Notes: generated by a model from the letters alone, not told the origin. 63,815 bases of DNA, filler included, from Gemmatimonadota bacterium (GCA_003697105.1; 4 parts of 4 records of this genome joined end to end with filler, not necessarily neighbours in it); one strand, 5' to 3'. Counted from the whole stretch's first letter, positions 3,230 to 60,121 are shown. A program made the numbers and translations.

Positions 3230-3434
3230 AACATCACCTCAACGTTATCATCAAACCAAAACAGATGTCGTGCCATTATAGAAGAAACAAAGTCAAAATT
3301 CAACCGGAAAAACAAAACGGAACTAATCCATTGATATTCTTTATGTTATTGTGATGGTTGTGTGACATCTAAACGGTTAGTAAAAAGTACCTTTGGTAAA
3401 ATTAACCTTTTATTTTAGGAAAGGAAGGACAACT

Positions 3435-4154
3435 ATGCAACGCTCATCAAGCTTCATCATTCAATTCATTTTAGTATTTCTAATGGGTTGGTCTATTTTT
3501 GGATATGCGGAAGAGATCGATCCTGAGGAAGGTGATGAATTAGTCGTATCCTATTGCCGGGAGTGCCATTCATTAGCTCGTGTTTACCAAACACCCTATA
3601 CCAAGGCACAATGGGAAGAAGCAATTGACCGTATGATCAAGGAAGGATTGGAGATTAATAGTGCAGATCGGGGCAATATTACCACCTATCTAGCCAGTCT
3701 TCACAAACCGGACTCTATCCTCAAATTAATTGGAAACTTCCATTTCATTTTGGTTCATTTCCCAATTGCCTTGATTCTGATTATCGGCTTGTTTGAATTA
3801 ATTGCGATCCTTACGGGGGAGCTACCTCAAATCAATCTGTTACATTGGCTCTGGCGTCTTGCACTTCTCTCAATTCTCCCCGTGATAATGCTGGGATTTT
3901 TTCTGGTACTTGGAAATGAGCATCTTTCCGCCACACTAATGTGGCACCGGAATTTAGCATTGTTGACGGCGCTTCTCACCCTAGTGGGATTGATTTTACG
4001 AGAGATTGCGGTCAAAAACCCGCAAAAATCGATGATTTGGGGGTACCGGTTGGTGTTATTACTGATGATGGGCGCTGTGGGCTTAACCGGACACTTAGGC
4101 GGAATCAGCGTTCATGGTGATTTTGTAACCTCATTGATGGAATCTTTTTTCTAA
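3435..4154 (+). CDS. Monoheme cytochrome c fused to DUF2231-like membrane domain
   Basis: Signal peptide, CRECH heme motif, then H.ILVHFPIAL...H...GH.GG..V 4-TM pattern; ATG 3435 after AAGGA. Confidence 0.75.
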   Translation: MQRSSSFIIQFILVFLMGWSIFGYAEEIDPEEGDELVVSYCRECHSLARVYQTPYTKAQWEEAIDRMIKEGLEINSADRGNITTYLASLHKPDSILKLIGNFHFILVHFPIALILIIGLFELIAILTGELPQINLLHWLWRLALLSILPVIMLGFFLVLGNEHLSATLMWHRNLALLTALLTLVGLILREIAVKNPQKSMIWGYRLVLLLMMGAVGLTGHLGGISVHGDFVTSLMESFF

Positions 4155-4178: not shown

Positions 4179-4221
4179 AAAAAACCCGAATCGATCTAAC
4201 TCGGATCGATTCGGGTTTTTT
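4179..4221. terminator. Bidirectional intrinsic terminator
   Basis: AAAAAACCCGAATCGATC-loop-GATCGATTCGGGTTTTTT perfect inverted repeat between convergent genes. Confidence 0.9.
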
Positions 4222-4254: not shown

Positions 4255-4992
4255 TCACATACCTATCAAGTTGATATGCATTGTACCGAGCCAATCCCCT
4301 AACAAGAACTGCATTCGTCCAATCAGCAATGAGATACGCGCCATCACGGTAAAACCGAAGGATGCCCCAAAGGAAATCATTAAAAACCAGATACCGGCAC
4401 GGGCGGTCACACCCATTGCACCTTCATGCTTAATCGAAAAGAAGAAGTACGCCAAGCACGCTACCAAGCCAAAAACGATAATGGCATTGTTAATCACGCC
4501 ACCGGAGCTACCAAACACCATCCACGCATCTGGACTGGTCGCAATTCCTGCCCACCCTTGCTTAACCAGTTCGCCGGTAGCGGGCACAAATACCTCGGTT
4601 CCCGGGTTTAAGGAGAGCATAGAGCCATGTAGCTGTTTGATGATATTCGATTGCATTTCCGCCGTCAGGGCAATTCCCGCACCGAAACCGACACTCAGGG
4701 CAATGGGCCAGCGGCTCATCCAAGCAATATTCGGGAAAAAGCGTGTCAGGTACATCAGCCCAAACACCAATCCGAAAACCAGCATAAAGCCTTCAAACCC
4801 GCTGGGTCCGGCTTGGAAGGGTTCAATCAAGTTTGGTTTTAGAATTTGCCACCAGGCAATCGGCACCATATACCCCGCCGAAACTCCCACGAACAAGTGT
4901 TCTGCCAGTTTGTATACCGGATTATCATTGTACAAAAAGCTGTATAGTGCTAATGTGAGCAACGCCGCTACCCAAATTCCAAAAACATCCAT
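4255..4992 (-). CDS. Conserved hypothetical multi-TM membrane protein (operon gene 5)
   Basis: About 6 hydrophobic segments; YSFLY.DNP.YK.AEH motif; AAGGAG/GGAG SD. Confidence 0.8.
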   Translation of the reverse strand: MDVFGIWVAALLTLALYSFLYNDNPVYKLAEHLFVGVSAGYMVPIAWWQILKPNLIEPFQAGPSGFEGFMLVFGLVFGLMYLTRFFPNIAWMSRWPIALSVGFGAGIALTAEMQSNIIKQLHGSMLSLNPGTEVFVPATGELVKQGWAGIATSPDAWMVFGSSGGVINNAIIVFGLVACLAYFFFSIKHEGAMGVTARAGIWFLMISFGASFGFTVMARISLLIGRMQFLLGDWLGTMHINLIGM

Positions 4993-5008
4993 GGTTATCT
5001 CCTACTCC

Positions 5009-5872
5009 TTATGGGTTTGATTGGTTGCGAGTCATAAAAAACGCCACATTTCCAATTATGATAAAAATCACAATCACAATGTGTGCAATTGACTGTGATG
5101 CCATCCCAGCGGAAGCCGAACCGAGTTCAAATTTGGGATACTTTTGAGCTAACAGGTTTTCATATTCCGCCGCACCTTTCAATCCCGCCATTAATCCGGT
5201 CAATTGTCCGGTATCCAAAAATGGATACAGTTCAGGAGCACTCACGGCGGTACACCCGCCGGCAAGCGGGAAATTATACCGCGTTTGCCCCACCGGCACC
5301 CACGAATCTGCCATACCCGGCGAGCCTGCCGCTAATGAGACCACGAGGTCTACATCCTTTAAGTTCGTGATTCCTTTCATCAACGGAAAGTCTTTAATGG
5401 GTTTGGCTTCACGGGTATCCAGCGGATAGGCTGTGGCAATATCATTCCCTAACTGGTCGATCACAACCGGACCACCTACCTTATATCCCAAGAATATAAA
5501 ATCCTCTCCATAGGTTTTTTCCACACCGTATGCCGCTTTTAAGTCCTCCGCCGCCTCAAATATGGCTTGTTCTGAGAGGGGTGCGCCCGGCGCCCATAAA
5601 TTCATGGTGATAATCTTCAAATCTTTCTTTAAGAGATGGCGGACTATCGCCAAATTCATGGGATACAACTCCGGCATAGAACCGGGGTCGTAATCTCCCG
5701 AAACAACCACAACACTACCCGGTTCCAGGTTTTCCACAAATTCAAAGATATTCCGAACTGCCGGGGTATAGCTCATGGGCAATTTCGGTTTGAAGATCAA
5801 GGGAAGCGCCACGGCAAAAGCGATAAACAAAAAGATGATTCGACGATCCAGATTAGAAATTTTCTCGAGCAT
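5009..5872 (-). CDS. Conserved hypothetical membrane protein, TM-soluble domain-TM (operon gene 4)
   Basis: N- and C-terminal TM helices around a ~220-aa alpha/beta domain; PFLDTGQLTGLMAGLKGAAEYE; GAGGAGG SD. Confidence 0.8.
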   Translation of the reverse strand: MLEKISNLDRRIIFLFIAFAVALPLIFKPKLPMSYTPAVRNIFEFVENLEPGSVVVVSGDYDPGSMPELYPMNLAIVRHLLKKDLKIITMNLWAPGAPLSEQAIFEAAEDLKAAYGVEKTYGEDFIFLGYKVGGPVVIDQLGNDIATAYPLDTREAKPIKDFPLMKGITNLKDVDLVVSLAAGSPGMADSWVPVGQTRYNFPLAGGCTAVSAPELYPFLDTGQLTGLMAGLKGAAEYENLLAQKYPKFELGSASAGMASQSIAHIVIVIFIIIGNVAFFMTRNQSNP

Positions 5873-5887
5873 TTGATCCTCCTCTTC

Positions 5888-6532
5888 TTACTCATTGCCC
5901 AGATATGATCGATCAATACCGACTAAAATACGCAACGCTTGCGCAATCCCACCAAAAGCGGCACCGATCAAAATTGCGCGTTTCGCTGCCACATTCGGTT
6001 TGTTCATAATCCAGTCCGTAATTTGAGGATCAAAGATTTTCAAAAACATGGTGTCGGAGAGCCACTTTCCAATGGGTACTTGACCCAACATTACGATGGT
6101 TGCCGAAACCAGCAAGAGTCCCGCTTCTAAATTGCGCATGCGGAACGCCCGGAATGCCGCCGAAGCAATGAAGAATGCCAACATCGAAAACATGGTGGCT
6201 TGCATGGGCACATACATGTAATTAAACATCCAGCCAAACAGGTTGGTCGTTACATTATAATCTCGCCAAATAAACCCGGCGAGTGCCATCACGACCAGAC
6301 CCACCAACAACACAACCCGATAACCTGAATCTTCACTCTTCATAGAAATACGACGAACATTGACCTGAACCAAGTTCCCTATCCCCAGCACAACCGCAAA
6401 TGCGCTCGCAATAATCACCGCATTACGAAACGAGTTATTCAACGTTTGAAATGTCTCATGGGGAATGAAGAAACTGAAGATCATAATCAATCCGGAGATA
6501 AAGGCAATTGCTAACGGTACTTCTCGACGCAC
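5888..6532 (-). CDS. Conserved hypothetical multi-TM membrane protein (operon gene 3)
   Basis: About 6 TM; PMQATMFSMLAFFIASAAFRAFR motif; GTG at 6532 after AAGGAG. Confidence 0.8.
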   Translation of the reverse strand: MRREVPLAIAFISGLIMIFSFFIPHETFQTLNNSFRNAVIIASAFAVVLGIGNLVQVNVRRISMKSEDSGYRVVLLVGLVVMALAGFIWRDYNVTTNLFGWMFNYMYVPMQATMFSMLAFFIASAAFRAFRMRNLEAGLLLVSATIVMLGQVPIGKWLSDTMFLKIFDPQITDWIMNKPNVAAKRAILIGAAFGGIAQALRILVGIDRSYLGNE

Positions 6533-6549
6533 AGTTCTACTCCTTTCCC

Positions 6550-7809
6550 TTAATTGACCGCAAATAAGGCGCGATACCATTCGACATTCATGGTGCTCAT
6601 CAGCACCCCGAGTAGCATCAAGACGACAAAAATTGCCTTACCGATATCGGAGCTTTTTAAACTCGCAATCAACCGGGGGTCGCGGGAGAGATACGCACTC
6701 GCCGCGAACAATTCTTCCCCAATCAACGTGTAGTCACAAGCCGCAATAAAAAATGGAATTTGTGCGACCATAGCGGTGCCAGCCACTTGAATTGCTCCCG
6801 CCGAAAACCCGGTTTCCGCCAAGATGAGAGATTCGGCATAGAATTCACCTAAATACAGGTTCGCAGCCGGATGTTCGCGAAGCATGATCCCGTTCACCCC
6901 GGCCACATAGGCAAATTGCTCCTCAGTTAGGAAGCGAACATTCTCCGGCGAATAGGCATCTAACCGTCCGGCATCCAAATAGCCTTCCCGAACCGTTTCA
7001 TCCGCCGCCGTCATAACGATGGGGTCGCGGCAAGGTACAATGAGTTTGGTGTCATATTCAGCGGTAATCTTAGCCACCTCACCCATAATCGCTAAACTCG
7101 CCAGGGTCTGGATGTTGGAGATCACCCCAATTCCCGGCACATACAACACCGGACGCCCCATTTCCGTGGCACGCCCAATCGCTTCTCCCACCGCGGAAAG
7201 CCCCGGAATACGCCGCACAAATAATTCACGCCGTTGCGCCTGAGCGGTGTACCAAAGCACCAAGCCCGAAAAAATAATAACCCCCAGCAAGATGTTTAAC
7301 AGCAAGGAGTTAAACCACTGGGGCTTTGCCATCCCTTCAACGGGAGTCGCCAATCGAGAGCGAATCTCATCGGTAGCGCCGACAGCCTGCACTTTATAAA
7401 AATAGGACTTTTGGTTCTCTACATTGTGATCGGTGTATTCCGTCGTTCCGGCACTGACCTCACCGATTTCCTCATAGGAACCACTCGCACTCGTCGAACG
7501 AAGAATAATATATTTGTGGACTAAGTTTCGGCCCTCACCATCATCTTGTGATTTTTCCCACGTAAGTTGAATAGCGCCACCACCATCATTTGGAACATCT
7601 TTCGCCTTTAATTGGCGGGGCGGCTCCGGAATGGGTGCCGGTAATGCGGGTACAATATCACTCAGATTTAAGGAATCAACGGAAACCGAATCCACTTCCG
7701 TAACTGGTACATCCGGATTGGATTCCTGAGCAGAAGCAGAATCCCCTGCCCAGCTAATCATCAGGAGAAAAGCACATAATCCTAAAAAAACGAAGGTCTG
7801 TTTGTGCAT
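6550..7809 (-). CDS. Signal peptide + fibronectin type III + DUF6754-like membrane protein (operon gene 2)
   Basis: FN3 pattern (PRQLKA...IQLTW...YIILRS...YTD...YFYKVQAV), TM, then RRIPGL.A..EAIGRATEMGRP...AESLILAETG...ACDYTLIGEELFAASAY. Family name recalled, not searched. Confidence 0.8.
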   Translation of the reverse strand: MHKQTFVFLGLCAFLLMISWAGDSASAQESNPDVPVTEVDSVSVDSLNLSDIVPALPAPIPEPPRQLKAKDVPNDGGGAIQLTWEKSQDDGEGRNLVHKYIILRSTSASGSYEEIGEVSAGTTEYTDHNVENQKSYFYKVQAVGATDEIRSRLATPVEGMAKPQWFNSLLLNILLGVIIFSGLVLWYTAQAQRRELFVRRIPGLSAVGEAIGRATEMGRPVLYVPGIGVISNIQTLASLAIMGEVAKITAEYDTKLIVPCRDPIVMTAADETVREGYLDAGRLDAYSPENVRFLTEEQFAYVAGVNGIMLREHPAANLYLGEFYAESLILAETGFSAGAIQVAGTAMVAQIPFFIAACDYTLIGEELFAASAYLSRDPRLIASLKSSDIGKAIFVVLMLLGVLMSTMNVEWYRALFAVN

Positions 7810-7835
7810 AACTACTCCTTTCCTTTAACAAAAAC

Positions 7836-7867
7836 AAAAAAGGAGACCGTCATGGCTGACGCTCTCC
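7836..7867 (-). terminator. Intra-operon terminator/attenuator-like hairpin
   Basis: GGAGA-C-CGTCA / TGACG-C-TCTCC stem (one mismatch) followed on the minus strand by a U6 tract, between genes 1 and 2. Confidence 0.55.
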
Positions 7868-7878
7868 AGATAAAGGTA

Positions 7879-9024
7879 TTATTCTTCAATCATTTCCACA
7901 TTCGCCCGAGGTAGGGTAACTTCTTGCTCAACACCTTCCAATTTTGCCTGTAAGACCCGCACTTTTGCTTCGGTTTCCAAGGCAGTTAATTCCGGTGGTA
8001 AAGCCGTCACCGTACCCAGTATACCAAAATAGGGATTCCGAATGACGCGGATGGGAGTCCCAATATCCATTCCTTTTAGTTCTCGTTCCACATCTTCAGA
8101 GCCGGTGAGATTTTGCATCTCCTCACTTATCGGGATAATAATTTCTGGACGAATCACACCTGCCCGAATTTGAGTTGCGCCGTTGATAGAGGCGTGCCGT
8201 CCAGCAGACTTTTGAAGCAGATGGAACGTTTTCCGCGCCATCGTAATTTGCCCAAACCCTTCCGTGATGACCAAACTGATCCCTAAATCTTCCGAACCGG
8301 TAATCGCCACACCTAAATCGTATCCCAGAAATTCGCGCAAATCACTATCATTAAGACCGCCCACAACGATCCCGCGCACACCGGTATCGATTGCCTTCTG
8401 AATAGCCGCCGCGGTAACCAGAGAACCGCCGCCAATAATCTTATCTTTGCAATCAGGTGTAACAAACGATTCATCCAAAATTTGTGCAGGAGATTCCGTC
8501 ACCACTTTCAGTTCACCGTGGGTCTCTCCACCGACACCAAAAATTCCTTGAATGAACGTACCTACGGTCTCCACGGCAATGCCTTCATTTTCAAAAACGT
8601 CAACCACGACGCCATCTACGTAGGCATTAATCTCAATCGGAATGGGGGGTTCCCGTAAAATCGCTTTACCGGTCACATTGGAAACACTTTCAAAAAAACC
8701 ATCGATGGGGGATTTTACCGTCGATTGAAAAAAACCAAAAAAACCACCACCTTTGGCAATCGGTTCGCCTTTCGTTACGGGGTCACCTTCTTTTTTCAAC
8801 ATGGCTTCCGGCACATCCGATGGATTGATCGTCAATGCACTTGCCACATTCACCGTTTGAATATTTCCGGGTAAATCTGTTCGGGCAACAACCGTATCCG
8901 CTTTAACCCGATCCCCTTTTTTGACGACAATTTGACCCGGCAATGGCAACCGGCGGTCTTTAATCAAAACAGTCTTTTCGGTAACCCGTAACCCAGGTGT
9001 GTATGCGTGTGCCAAAGCTGTCAC
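7879..9024 (-). CDS. Conserved hypothetical soluble protein with barrel-sandwich-hybrid-like motifs and C-terminal KOW-like domain (operon gene 1)
   Basis: GQIVVKKGDRVKADTVVA and LKKEGDPVTKGEPIA...VKSPIDG hybrid motifs; IGTPIRVIRNPYFGILGTV KOW-like motif; GTG start with GGGAGG SD. Confidence 0.8.
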   Translation of the reverse strand: MTALAHAYTPGLRVTEKTVLIKDRRLPLPGQIVVKKGDRVKADTVVARTDLPGNIQTVNVASALTINPSDVPEAMLKKEGDPVTKGEPIAKGGGFFGFFQSTVKSPIDGFFESVSNVTGKAILREPPIPIEINAYVDGVVVDVFENEGIAVETVGTFIQGIFGVGGETHGELKVVTESPAQILDESFVTPDCKDKIIGGGSLVTAAAIQKAIDTGVRGIVVGGLNDSDLREFLGYDLGVAITGSEDLGISLVITEGFGQITMARKTFHLLQKSAGRHASINGATQIRAGVIRPEIIIPISEEMQNLTGSEDVERELKGMDIGTPIRVIRNPYFGILGTVTALPPELTALETEAKVRVLQAKLEGVEQEVTLPRANVEMIEE

Positions 9025-9087
9025 GCCTCCCTTCTAAACGTCTGAATTAAAAAGCAGATAAGACCTTAGTTCAATTTTGTAAGCGCT

Positions 9088-9117
9088 AGATTACCACACT
9101 TGTCCAGTACTTGTCAA
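9088..9117 (-). promoter_or_regulatory. Sigma70-like promoter for the five-gene operon
   Basis: Minus strand TTGACA-N18-TAATCT with extended -10 TG. Confidence 0.55.
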
Positions 9118-9359: not shown

Positions 9360-10508
9360 ATGTCTAAACGAGATTATTACGAGGTTCTAGGGGTGGATCG
9401 ATCCGCCTCAGCGGAGGAAATCAAAAAAGCGTACCGAAAACTTGCCATGAAATATCATCCGGATCGAAATCCAGATGATAAAAATGCCGAAGAAAAATTT
9501 AAGGAAGCCTCCGAAGCGTATGAAATCCTTAGTGATCGAGAAAAGCGTGCATTATACGACCGGCATGGACATGCCGGCGTGGATCCCATGTTTGGTCAAG
9601 GGGGATTCTCGTGGTCCGATTTTACCCACGCCTCCGAATTTGAAGACATTTTGGGCGATCTATTTGGCAGTTTTTTTGGCGGACGGAGTCGTAGTAGTAG
9701 AAGCCGGCGCGGCTCAGCCCGGCGAGGAAAAGACGTTACCATCCCCCTTCACCTCTCTCTGGAAGAAATTGCGACCGGTGTTGAAAAGAAAATCCGCTAC
9801 AAACGTTACGAAAAGTGTGAAAAATGCGACGGAACCGGTGCCAAAAATAGAAATGCGGTTCAAACCTGCCCCGATTGTGGGGGTGCCGGCGAAGTACGCC
9901 GCGTTCAACGCTCCTTTTTAGGATCGTTCACAACCGTCACCGGTTGCCCTCGCTGCCAAGGGGAAGGTCAGATTATTACCGAACGGTGTCATGCTTGCCG
10001 GGGCGAAGGGCTTGTTCATGGAGAACAAACGGTTTCAGTGCGTGTGCCCGCTGGGGTTAGTTCTGGAAATTACATTCCAATCCGAGGGCAAGGCAGTGCC
10101 GGACCCCGCGGCGGGCCAAATGGGGACTTGATCGTCCATATCGAAGAAAAAGAACATGAATTTTTCGAGCGCGTCGGCGATAATATCATTTACACCTTAC
10201 CCATCAGTTTCCCGCAAGCGGCGTTAGGTGCAGAAATTGAAATTCCGACCCTCACGGATACGATCAAGTTAAAAATTCCGGAAGGAACTCAATCGGGTAA
10301 AGTGTTTCGGGTGCGAGACCGGGGGATACCTCACCTGAACGGGCGCGGTAGAGGTGACCAGTTAGTTCGGGTGATTGTCTGGGTACCGGAAAAACTGAGC
10401 AAAGACGATAAAAAATGGATCGAAAAGCTGGCAAAAAGTGAGAATCTGATGCCCCCCCAACCCGGCAAAGGCTTTCTCTCTAAAGTAAAAGAATTTTTGG
10501 GCTTGTAA
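9360..10508 (+). CDS. dnaJ: Chaperone DnaJ
   Basis: J domain with HPD, G/F region, four CxxCxGxG repeats. Confidence 0.98.
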
Positions 10509-18425: not shown

Positions 18426-18499
18426 TGGGGTGTCGTCTAATGGTAGGACAGCGGACTCTGGATCCGTCAGTCGGGGTTCGAATCCCTGCACCCCAGCCA
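18426..18499 (+). tRNA. tRNA-Gln(CTG)
   Basis: Acceptor stem TGGGGTG/CACCCCA, anticodon arm GCGGA-CT-CTG-GA-TCCGT, GGTTCGAATCC T-arm, encoded CCA. Confidence 0.97.
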
Positions 18500-24572: not shown

Positions 24573-24672
24573 NNNNNNNNNNNNNNNNNNNNNNNNNNNN
24601 NNNNNNNNNNNNNNNNTTAATTAATTAANNNNNNNNNNNNNNNNNNNNNNNNNNNNNNNNNNNNNNNNNNNN
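24573..24672. other. Artificial assembly spacer
   Basis: N44-TTAATTAATTAA-N44 (stop codons in all six frames). Confidence 0.97.
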
Positions 24673-40572: not shown

Positions 40573-40672
40573 NNNNNNNNNNNNNNNNNNNNNNNNNNNN
40601 NNNNNNNNNNNNNNNNTTAATTAATTAANNNNNNNNNNNNNNNNNNNNNNNNNNNNNNNNNNNNNNNNNNNN
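40573..40672. other. Artificial assembly spacer
   Basis: N44-TTAATTAATTAA-N44. Confidence 0.97.
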
Positions 40673-60021: not shown

Positions 60022-60121
60022 NNNNNNNNNNNNNNNNNNNNNNNNNNNNNNNNNNNNNNNNNNNNTTAATTAATTAANNNNNNNNNNNNNNNNNNNNNNN
60101 NNNNNNNNNNNNNNNNNNNNN
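60022..60121. other. Artificial assembly spacer
   Basis: N44-TTAATTAATTAA-N44. Confidence 0.97.

Follow-up and report, generated by a model that had tools for sequence, protein, structure and literature searches.

The stretch of 63,815 nucleotides analyzed here, taken from a Gemmatimonadota bacterium (GCA_003697105.1) and called the window below, harbors on its minus strand, between positions 4255 and 9117, an operon of five genes, g1 to g5, in which g2 to g5 encode a membrane cassette and g1 a putative cytoplasmic adaptor. The window consists of four pieces that are not necessarily mutual neighbours and are joined by N runs at 24573-24672, 40573-40672, and 60022-60121; only bases 1-24572, on which the operon lies, represent contig C135 of the genome (G000:C135). 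An earlier note, made from the sequence of the window, regarded the operon as a self-contained unit for an uncharacterized membrane complex. As described below, the operon is not self-contained but part of a system with at least nine components, which include a GlmL-like ATPase encoded on another contig. Our best reading of this system, held at slightly less than an even chance, is an ATP-driven importer of a new kind, built of the cassette, the adaptor, and the ATPase.

The five co-directional open reading frames, listed with our own scripts, occupy 4255-9024. The first gene, g1 (7879-9024), is a frame of 381 amino acids for the adaptor, in which two barrel-sandwich hybrid motifs precede a swivelling beta/beta/alpha domain and, at the end, a KOW-like tail. 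It is followed by g2 (6550-7809; 419 amino acids), which has a leader, an FN3 domain predicted to be extracytoplasmic, a transmembrane helix, a DUF6754 domain predicted to be cytoplasmic, and a second transmembrane helix. Then come g3 (5888-6532; about 214 amino acids, six transmembrane segments, no family, both termini predicted inside), g4 (5009-5872; 287 amino acids, with a Rossmann-like alpha/beta domain, predicted to be extracytoplasmic, between two transmembrane helices), and g5 (4255-4992; 245 amino acids, about six transmembrane segments, no family, N-terminus predicted outside). The longest frame of g3 reaches to 6580 (230 amino acids), but its true start is most likely GTG at 6532 rather than ATG at 6580, because AGGAG lies 7 nucleotides upstream of the former and none precedes the latter; the homologues of g3 have 206-216 amino acids and cover 93% of the query, and the ESM Atlas record begins at residue 17. 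Similarly, g1 probably starts at TTG 9015, which yields MAHAYTPG as in its homologues.

With these corrected starts the intergenic gaps are 69, 17, 15, and 16 nucleotides, and a GGAG-type ribosome-binding site is found before each of the five genes, in agreement with the tightly spaced minus-strand unit drawn in the earlier note. The strong terminator that it placed at 4179-4221 is also present, as a bidirectional intrinsic-terminator-like hairpin with a 19-pair stem and T runs on both strands, common to g5 and a convergent gene at 3393-4154. The operon's own promoter, placed at 9088-9117 (minus strand), stood in part: a perfect TTGACA (9117-9112), an 18-nucleotide spacer with a terminal TGG, and TAATCT (9093-9088) can be read directly in the sequence, while a consensus scan of the window did not list the site because its -10 hexamer matches at only three of six positions. 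A genuine promoter upstream of g1 is plausible.

The membrane cassette and its predicted topology

Among the five proteins only g2 has a family. Its residues 162-415 match Pfam DUF6754 (PF20539) at 372.5 bits (E 1.1e-111; gathering score 27 bits) over profile positions 2-256 of 257, that is, over the whole model; the family is catalogued only, with no function attached. In addition, g2 has a hydrophobic N-terminal leader, and positions 35-136 of its family profile match titin FN3 (E 1.2e-21). The other four proteins, g1, g3, g4, and g5, reach no Pfam or NCBIfam threshold, and profile searches of the PDB with the g3, g4, and g5 families returned no relative. Weak Pfam matches across the family members are inconsistent, the best being TMD0_ABC in 9 of 31 g3 members (E >= 0.0069), and for g3 the ESM Atlas holds unnamed clusters only. 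Apart from the FN3 domain of g2, PDB searches yielded no solved structure that is a sequence relative. The earlier statement that no ABC (ATP-binding cassette), redox, or known transporter family occurs among the five proteins was upheld in Pfam, NCBIfam, and PDB profile searches.

The layouts proposed for the membrane proteins were borne out by hydropathy: g2 and g4 both have a soluble domain between two transmembrane helices, and about six hydrophobic segments were counted in each of g3 and g5. In the AlphaFold2 model of g4 (predicted local distance difference test, pLDDT, 93.1), a Rossmann-like three-layer domain lies between two helices. Its list of fold matches is flat and generic, led by MT0777, a structural-genomics protein (Z 9.7), and continued by RCK/KTN domains, short-chain dehydrogenases/reductases, and GT-B halves (Z 7.5-8.5). 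g4 is also the most diverged subunit, with 26% identity between the paralogues of this genome and 38% mean column identity in the family alignment.

Some relatives carry additional segments. Some g3 relatives, of 284-395 amino acids (P0123, P0136, P0150, P0158, P0192, P0199), have a charged insert of about 60-180 residues between helices 3 and 4. Planctomycetota g2 proteins (L092 2857-6795, L093 7394-11212, L094 6492-9302, L095 1902-4628) have 650-1050 extra N-terminal residues with no Pfam match, and in one of them that was inspected FN3 seems to be split by a long Ala/Glu/Lys-rich, probably helical insert.

The four membrane genes are strictly co-conserved as a cluster. In 80 g1 loci, fetched and analyzed with our own ORF (open reading frame) caller and phmmer, g3, g4, and g5 follow g2 in that order at all 27 g2 genes with enough room, and likewise in the cassettes of 20 further loci; seven loci have two or three tandem copies of g2. 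The window operon itself has a cassette in the same sense, a DUF6754 gene and then g3-, g4-, and g5-type genes. Furthermore, natural fusions of g4 and g5 exist: three, of 579-598 amino acids, were found among the best 150 of the 2887 representatives of the g5 family (E <= 0.001). The co-conservation foreseen for these genes is therefore present, and g2 to g5 very probably form one complex.

How the subunits lie in the membrane was judged from hydropathy and from counts of Lys and Arg (K+R) in the family alignments, made with our own scripts. The domain of g2 is placed inside by a mean K+R of 7.1 in its flanks. Both termini of g4 are placed inside (mean K+R 3.2 and 3.5), and its domain should therefore be outside. 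For g3 the counts point to N-in/C-in (9.0 vs 4.2), and those for g5 point less clearly to N-out/C-out (6.3 vs 3.8). The fusions bear on the same question: each of the three has exactly one extra hydrophobic helix in a linker of about 88 residues, as would be needed if g4 ends inside and g5 begins outside. In addition, in four inspected g5 relatives the first g5 helix is preceded by an N-terminal signal-anchor helix and then 100-200 residues of soluble sequence, which fits an N-out g5. These signals suggest an antiparallel arrangement, with the domain of g2 on the inside and that of g4 on the outside, and with the N-terminus of g3 inside and that of g5 outside. The earlier note had proposed a pseudo-symmetric 2+2 complex, with similar C-terminal helices in g3 and g5. 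Sequence comparison lends no support to either idea, since hhalign gives a probability of 1.2-1.4% for homology of g3 with g5, and of 1.9-2.5% for g2 with g4.

The adaptor and its ATPase partner

The adaptor g1 has two hybrid motifs of the lipoyl/biotinyl kind, KKGDRV at residue 35 and KEGDPV at residue 78, without the MKM/DKA attachment motif, as first described; this motif is found in only 1 of 50 aligned relatives. With a borderline score against Biotin_lipoyl (PF00364; 22.2 bits vs a cut-off of 22.1, no single stretch passing) and no modified lysine in a DKA/MKM hairpin, g1 does not qualify as a lipoyl/biotinyl attachment domain. In an AlphaFold2 model made from 50 sequences (mean pLDDT 83.5), residues 155-298 match the phosphohistidine swivelling beta/beta/alpha domain of enzyme I of the phosphotransferase system (PTS) (2wqd; Z 9.5, root-mean-square deviation (rmsd) 2.6, 104 residues), and further matches are rifampin phosphotransferase (Z 8.7-9.2), RraA (Z 8.3-8.6), and the C-terminal domain of pyruvate kinase (Z 8.0-8.2). 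A KOW-type barrel makes up the final 60 residues (Z 8.8-9.3, rmsd 0.9-1.7 over 50-53 residues), so that the KOW-like tail seen earlier is confirmed. The Z values are near the level reached by unrelated models and therefore describe the fold, not the function.

Indeed, g1 has no Pfam match to PF00391, the phosphoenolpyruvate-utiliser mobile domain, despite the fold match at Z 9.5, and its swivel domain has no conserved histidine (H169, H268, and H277 occur in 12, 4, and 2% of the alignment rows, respectively). The sole invariant histidine of the protein is H6, within the motif AHAY(T/S)PG. A PTS-like phosphorelay via g1 was dropped because of this lack of a conserved histidine in the swivel domain. 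Neither is g1 a NusG/Spt5 protein, its likeness being confined to the KOW-like C-terminal 60 residues and no NusG family match being found in Pfam or NCBIfam. The PDB holds no sequence relative of g1 (best E 0.024), and its ESM Atlas clusters are "hypothetical", with Biotin_lipoyl or RnfC_N as minority labels. Diol-dehydratase reactivase (DdrA) combines an ASKHA (actin-type) fold with a swivelling domain; a likeness of the system to DdrA was set aside as unverified, and DdrA does not appear in the g1 fold lists.

The N-terminal part of g1 could also point to a divergent redox complex of the Rnf/Nqr type, where g1 would take the position of RnfC/NqrA and g3/g5 that of the antiparallel pair RnfA/RnfE. 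A score of 22 bits against RnfC_N, an NqrA hybrid-barrel fold match (Z 7.5 over 64 residues), and the two six-helix subunits predicted to be antiparallel would fit such a complex, yet the RnfC_N score is under the 25.6-bit cut-off, g2 to g5 match no Rnf/Nqr membrane family, and the proteins have no flavin or Fe-S motif, with 1-3 cysteines each (one in g1) and a single conserved histidine in g1. This alternative is close to refuted.

The g1 family is extremely widespread. It has matches in at least 8000 protein clusters, and with one genome taken per species at least 598 occurrences were confirmed among 599 candidate stretches; in the phylum of the present bacterium it occurs in all three genomes of the collection. 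Except for the three closest, the listed relatives are 56-62% identical (about 58% across phyla), and their records bear the labels WOR-3, Hydrothermota, Zixibacteria, Eisenbacteria, Eremiobacterota, TA06, CPR3, and one Thermoplasmata archaeon. Two kinds of neighbour recur around g1. On the downstream side, g2 follows directly in 20 of the 63 loci with at least 1.5 kb of sequence and is somewhere in the locus in 26 of them; this adjacency is found in Zixibacteria, Eisenbacteria, Fermentibacteria, Ignavibacteria, Planctomycetota, and the phylum of the present genome. On the upstream side, a gene for a GlmL-like protein of about 616 amino acids lies directly next to g1 in 34 of the 67 loci with at least 2 kb, in line with the earlier note, which placed this gene set often beside a GlmL-like protein. 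A representative of these proteins matches PF13941 with E 1.5e-127. It scores only 225.1 bits against the GlmL equivalog NF040745, whose cut-off is 475.

Adaptor and ATPase are also found as one protein. All 52 g1-matching proteins longer than 667 amino acids carry PF13941, and in 45 of these the match spans 98-100% of g1 (44-51% identity); two inspected fusions keep AHAY(T/S)PG at the junction. A fusion of g1 to a cassette subunit was not found among the 52. A reversed order was observed in L109 (7583-9255) and L115 (7210-10462), where the cassette is followed by the GlmL-like gene (two open reading frames in L109) and, in L115, then by a g1-like protein of 470 amino acids.

In the window operon none of the five proteins matches PF13941 or NF040745, as the earlier note had remarked. 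A search of the contigs of the genome for further copies of DUF6754, g1, and PF13941 revealed one g1, one PF13941 (MutL/GlmL) gene, and two cassettes. The GlmL-like gene is on contig C6 (G000:C6:4088-5962), encodes 624 amino acids matching PF13941 over the full length (E 2.2e-129), and is preceded by genes for two small membrane proteins of 121 and 146 amino acids. The ATPase and the two small proteins are 65, 49, and 33% identical, respectively, to the products of genes directly upstream of g1 in Zixibacteria/Eisenbacteria records. The NF040745 comparison was made on this relative, 65% identical to the C6 copy, which was itself scanned against Pfam only; PDB searches gave no sequence relative of the GlmL-like protein. 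Judged from these matches, the ATPase and two small membrane proteins of the system are encoded elsewhere in the genome, split from g1.

The second cassette, on contig C20, is complete, has the same gene order, is 26-34% identical to that of the window, and has no adjacent g1. A gene for a 5'-nucleotidase/metallophosphoesterase of 549 amino acids (PF02872, PF00149; L003 4031-5680, minus strand) lies 72 nucleotides beyond it on the same strand. The view of the operon as self-contained thus had to be given up: the closest partner of g1 is the ATPase on C6, and another cassette lies on C20.

Even where the genes are apart, they occur together in genomes. Among 151 evenly sampled Planctomycetota genomes (completeness >= 80%), g1 is present in 38, DUF6754 in 40, and PF13941 in 39: 38 genomes have all three components, two have DUF6754 only, one has only a weak partial PF13941 match, and 110 have none. 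For g1 and DUF6754 alone the table reads 38 with both, 0 with g1 only, two with DUF6754 only, and 111 with neither. Among 101 genomes of one Bacillota class, taken with no completeness filter, the g1 family is found in 48 (in four of them by a weak partial match only) and DUF6754 in 40; 40 genomes have both, eight only the g1 family, none only DUF6754, and 53 neither. Similarly, all five Poribacteria genomes with a g1 lacking a cassette within 8 kb have a DUF6754 gene elsewhere.

These tables agree with the earlier view of g1 as a cytoplasmic partner of the membrane module, and they bear on the alternative that g1 is a mere neighbour, functionally unlinked to g2-g5. The latter would account for the 37 of 63 loci in which g2 is outside the fetched flank, and for the fusions of g1, all with the ATPase and none with a cassette subunit. 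It is very unlikely in view of the co-occurrence in both samples and of an adjacency that recurs in several phyla. We consider it quite likely that g1 and the ATPase act on the cassette complex.

Copy number and gene neighbours

The numbers of cassettes and ATPases differ greatly in some genomes. In the Bacillota class, DUF6754 copies amount to 23 (3.8 Mb genome), 17 (1.9 Mb), 13 (2.0 Mb), 12 (2.4 Mb), and 11 (3.0 Mb), and the same five genomes have 6, 5, 5, 7, and 3 PF13941 matches, respectively. A Zixibacteria genome has five DUF6754 copies and an Ignavibacteria genome four. A large number of membrane modules for a few motors, along with a g4 that has diverged more than the other subunits, would be the pattern of transporters that share an energising module, and the chance that the cassette complex is a transporter seems to us about even. 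In the same Bacillota class the g1 family is expanded too (G192, G177, G191, and others), with up to 12 matches per genome, mostly a variant of 450-500 amino acids that matches the profile at about 54-373; the numbers of g1-like genes and cassettes are not proportional (12 vs 3 in G192).

The excess of cassettes over PF13941 genes, two- to four-fold, may also be explained if the ATPase is not a motor. GlmL has been proposed to play a reactivase-like role for glutamate mutase, and the GlmL-like ATPase and g1 might be a chaperone or "reactivase"-type pair that assembles, repairs, or gates the cassette, which would itself be an ATP-independent transporter or channel. Most cassettes are far from g1, the ATPase module has two small membrane proteins of its own, and the nearest named family is GlmL/MutL, at Pfam level only, all of which would suit such a pair. 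However, no evident ion-coupling residues are seen in the helices, the adaptor occurs without a cassette in none of the 38 Planctomycetota genomes, and the conservation across phyla (65% for the ATPase and about 58% for the adaptor) is above what is usual for an accessory factor. The chaperone pair is therefore improbable in our judgement.

Gene neighbours provide a further clue. From 20 cassette loci of two expanded Bacillota genomes, 54 co-directional near neighbours of at least 140 amino acids, belonging to 19 loci, were scanned, and 14 of the 19 loci have at least one amide-bond hydrolase. These comprise eight Amidohydro_3, three M20, two M81/MlrC, three Beta-lactamase2, one amidase, one S9/DPP-IV, one arginase, and one N-acetylmuramoyl-L-alanine amidase. 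None of 17 neighbour hydrolases checked has a signal-like hydrophobic N-terminus, and they should therefore act in the cytoplasm on something imported. Since the two genomes, of about 2 Mb, have only 18 and 13 Amidohydro_3 matches in total, the adjacency to cassettes is not due to sheer abundance. In three further genomes of the class (20 loci, 14 with scannable neighbours), amide-bond hydrolases occur at four of the 14: amidase and S9; M20; creatininase and two Amidohydro_3; and M23 and M50. Pooled over the five genomes, 18 of 33 loci have such neighbours. That the cassette complex imports amide-bond compounds is nonetheless doubtful at present.

Other neighbours belong to the cell wall: FtsW/RodA at two loci, directly upstream of the cassette, M23, N-acetylmuramoyl-L-alanine amidase, D-Ala-D-Ala ligase, and S11 carboxypeptidase. 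With the extracytoplasmic FN3 of g2, its long extensions in Planctomycetota, and a TonB-dependent receptor after the cassette in one lineage, they could indicate a machine for envelope biogenesis or export, handling for example precursors of the cell wall or of surface polymers. But the system is also found in Bacillota and in archaeal-labelled records and so cannot depend on an outer membrane, housekeeping envelope machines rarely have 10-23 copies per 2-4 Mb genome, and the commonest neighbours in the expanded genomes are the cytoplasmic hydrolases. There is only a small chance that the cassette serves the envelope in this manner. Regulators adjoin some cassettes as well, namely GntR and HutP, and the cassette could then be a membrane sensor, whose g4 domain binds a ligand outside and signals via g2, g1, and the ATPase. 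Sensors, too, often have many paralogues per genome, and one domain on each membrane face would suit signalling; against this, the five proteins have no recognisable output domain (kinase, cyclase, or DNA-binding), and four membrane subunits with about 16 helices exceed what signalling needs. A sensor is quite unlikely.

Several other features were seen around the operon and its relatives. GcvP is encoded upstream in 17 of the 80 loci and GcvT in 12; in two (L049, L030), the gene after g5 is one for a lipoate-protein ligase. A link to lipoate is limited to related FCB lineages and absent around the copies of this genome, and it was kept only as a lead. The TonB-dependent receptor, with CarboxypepD_reg, lies after the cassette in Fermentibacteria-type records (full length in L012, L023, L026, L029, L049, and L050; fragments in L043 and L078). 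At Rfam gathering scores, 50 related loci, the window, and the other two loci of this genome yielded no lysine riboswitch. The only riboswitch seen, of the c-di-GMP-I-GGC type (L102 173-283, plus strand; 63.6 bits, gathering 59), is located about 3.7 kb upstream of a Planctomycetota cassette, before another gene. In the window, the convergent gene at 3393-4154 (plus strand) encodes 253 amino acids with a CRECH motif (CxxCH, haem c-type) and then several hydrophobic helices, and the divergent upstream gene at 9360-10508 (plus strand) encodes a protein that resembles DnaJ, with a J-domain with HPD and four CxxCxGxG repeats; both descriptions come from reading the translations. A tRNA is found at 18426-18496.

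A possible ATP-driven importer and known systems

If the system is an importer, it may work as follows. The proteins g2 to g5 would form a four-subunit inner-membrane complex of two antiparallel halves, and the GlmL/MutL-type ATPase of about 620 amino acids, with its actin (ASKHA) fold, would be the second partner of g1, which would dock on g2. ATP-driven closure of the ATPase would be relayed by g1 to the cytoplasmic DUF6754 domain of g2, so that the cassette halves would open in turn to the outside and to the inside and import a small solute, and the outward domain of g4 would help to select the substrate. The single adaptor and ATPase of this genome would also serve the diverged cassette on C20. 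In the lineage with expanded cassettes, the solute would most plausibly be a compound with an amide bond, such as a peptide or an N-acyl amino acid.

Several points weigh against such an importer. The co-occurrence tables overstate their support, kin genomes not being independent, though their direction is still clear, and g1 is away from any cassette in more than half of its loci. The topology was derived from hydropathy and charge counts, not from a dedicated predictor. The helix cores of the membrane proteins hold few conserved charged residues, and the domain of g4, the supposed selector, resembles only generic Rossmann-like folds. The hydrolase neighbourhood is limited to the five genomes of one class, in which Amidohydro_3 is the only hydrolase family with a genome-wide background count, and some cassettes adjoin the cell-wall genes named above. 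Among 16 stand-alone cassette loci, which belong to this genome, one Bacillota genome, and members of the Planctomycetota, Zixibacteria, Ignavibacteria, and Poribacteria, just one has a hydrolase-type neighbour, the S11 carboxypeptidase; the remaining neighbours are mixed, with 2-oxoacid:ferredoxin oxidoreductase, protein kinase, PTS enzyme I, ABC permeases, sulfatase, and, in this genome, the 5'-nucleotidase. Finally, the window operon has neither a hydrolase nor another informative neighbour.

Compared with known systems, the importer would resemble those of the ABC and energy-coupling factor (ECF) types in having many cassettes per few ATPase genes, an outward domain that possibly binds the substrate, and adjoining catabolic hydrolases. 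Unlike them, it lacks an ABC ATPase, matches no Walker-type family, and shows no homology with any known permease or substrate-binding protein; Pfam and NCBIfam gave no match to an ABC ATPase or permease, and the putative motor has an actin-type fold. The ATPase on C6 shares with GlmL/MutL of coenzyme-B12 glutamate mutase (PF13941; NF040745) a full-length match and the signature of the actin/Hsp70-type fold family. It differs from them in its length, with an extra C-terminal domain, and in its company: no mutase gene was seen next to the GlmL-like gene in the loci read, and the gene occurs together with those for g1, the two small membrane proteins, and the cassette. Perhaps, then, the system represents a new class of primary active transporter, in which an ASKHA motor, rather than an ABC, P-type, or rotary one, acts via the swivelling-domain protein g1 on interchangeable four-subunit cassettes, each of two antiparallel, non-homologous halves with one alpha/beta domain per membrane face, so that one motor serves many cassettes and substrates. 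This wider proposal is a tentative one.

Searches with DUF6754, PF20539, PF13941, TIGR01319, and GlmL found no publication on the system, as far as titles and the beginnings of abstracts tell. New here are the split arrangement of adaptor and ATPase, the three-way co-occurrence tables, the fusions of g4 and g5 with one extra helix, the assignment of a swivelling domain to g1, and the 10- to 23-fold expansion of cassettes beside cytoplasmic amide hydrolases. The eight proteins (five of the operon, the ATPase, and two small membrane proteins) have no characterized relative in spite of the very wide distribution of the adaptor, and several percent of a genome of 2 Mb is given over to the cassette in some Bacillota. 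Testable handles on the system are offered by the separation of the adaptor and ATPase genes in this genome, by the natural fusions, and by the hydrolase neighbours, which hint at candidate substrates. If it is indeed an ATP-driven importer, it would add a new kind of motor to membrane transport and would supply a kind of nutrient uptake that is now missing from the predictions and metabolic models of many uncultured lineages.

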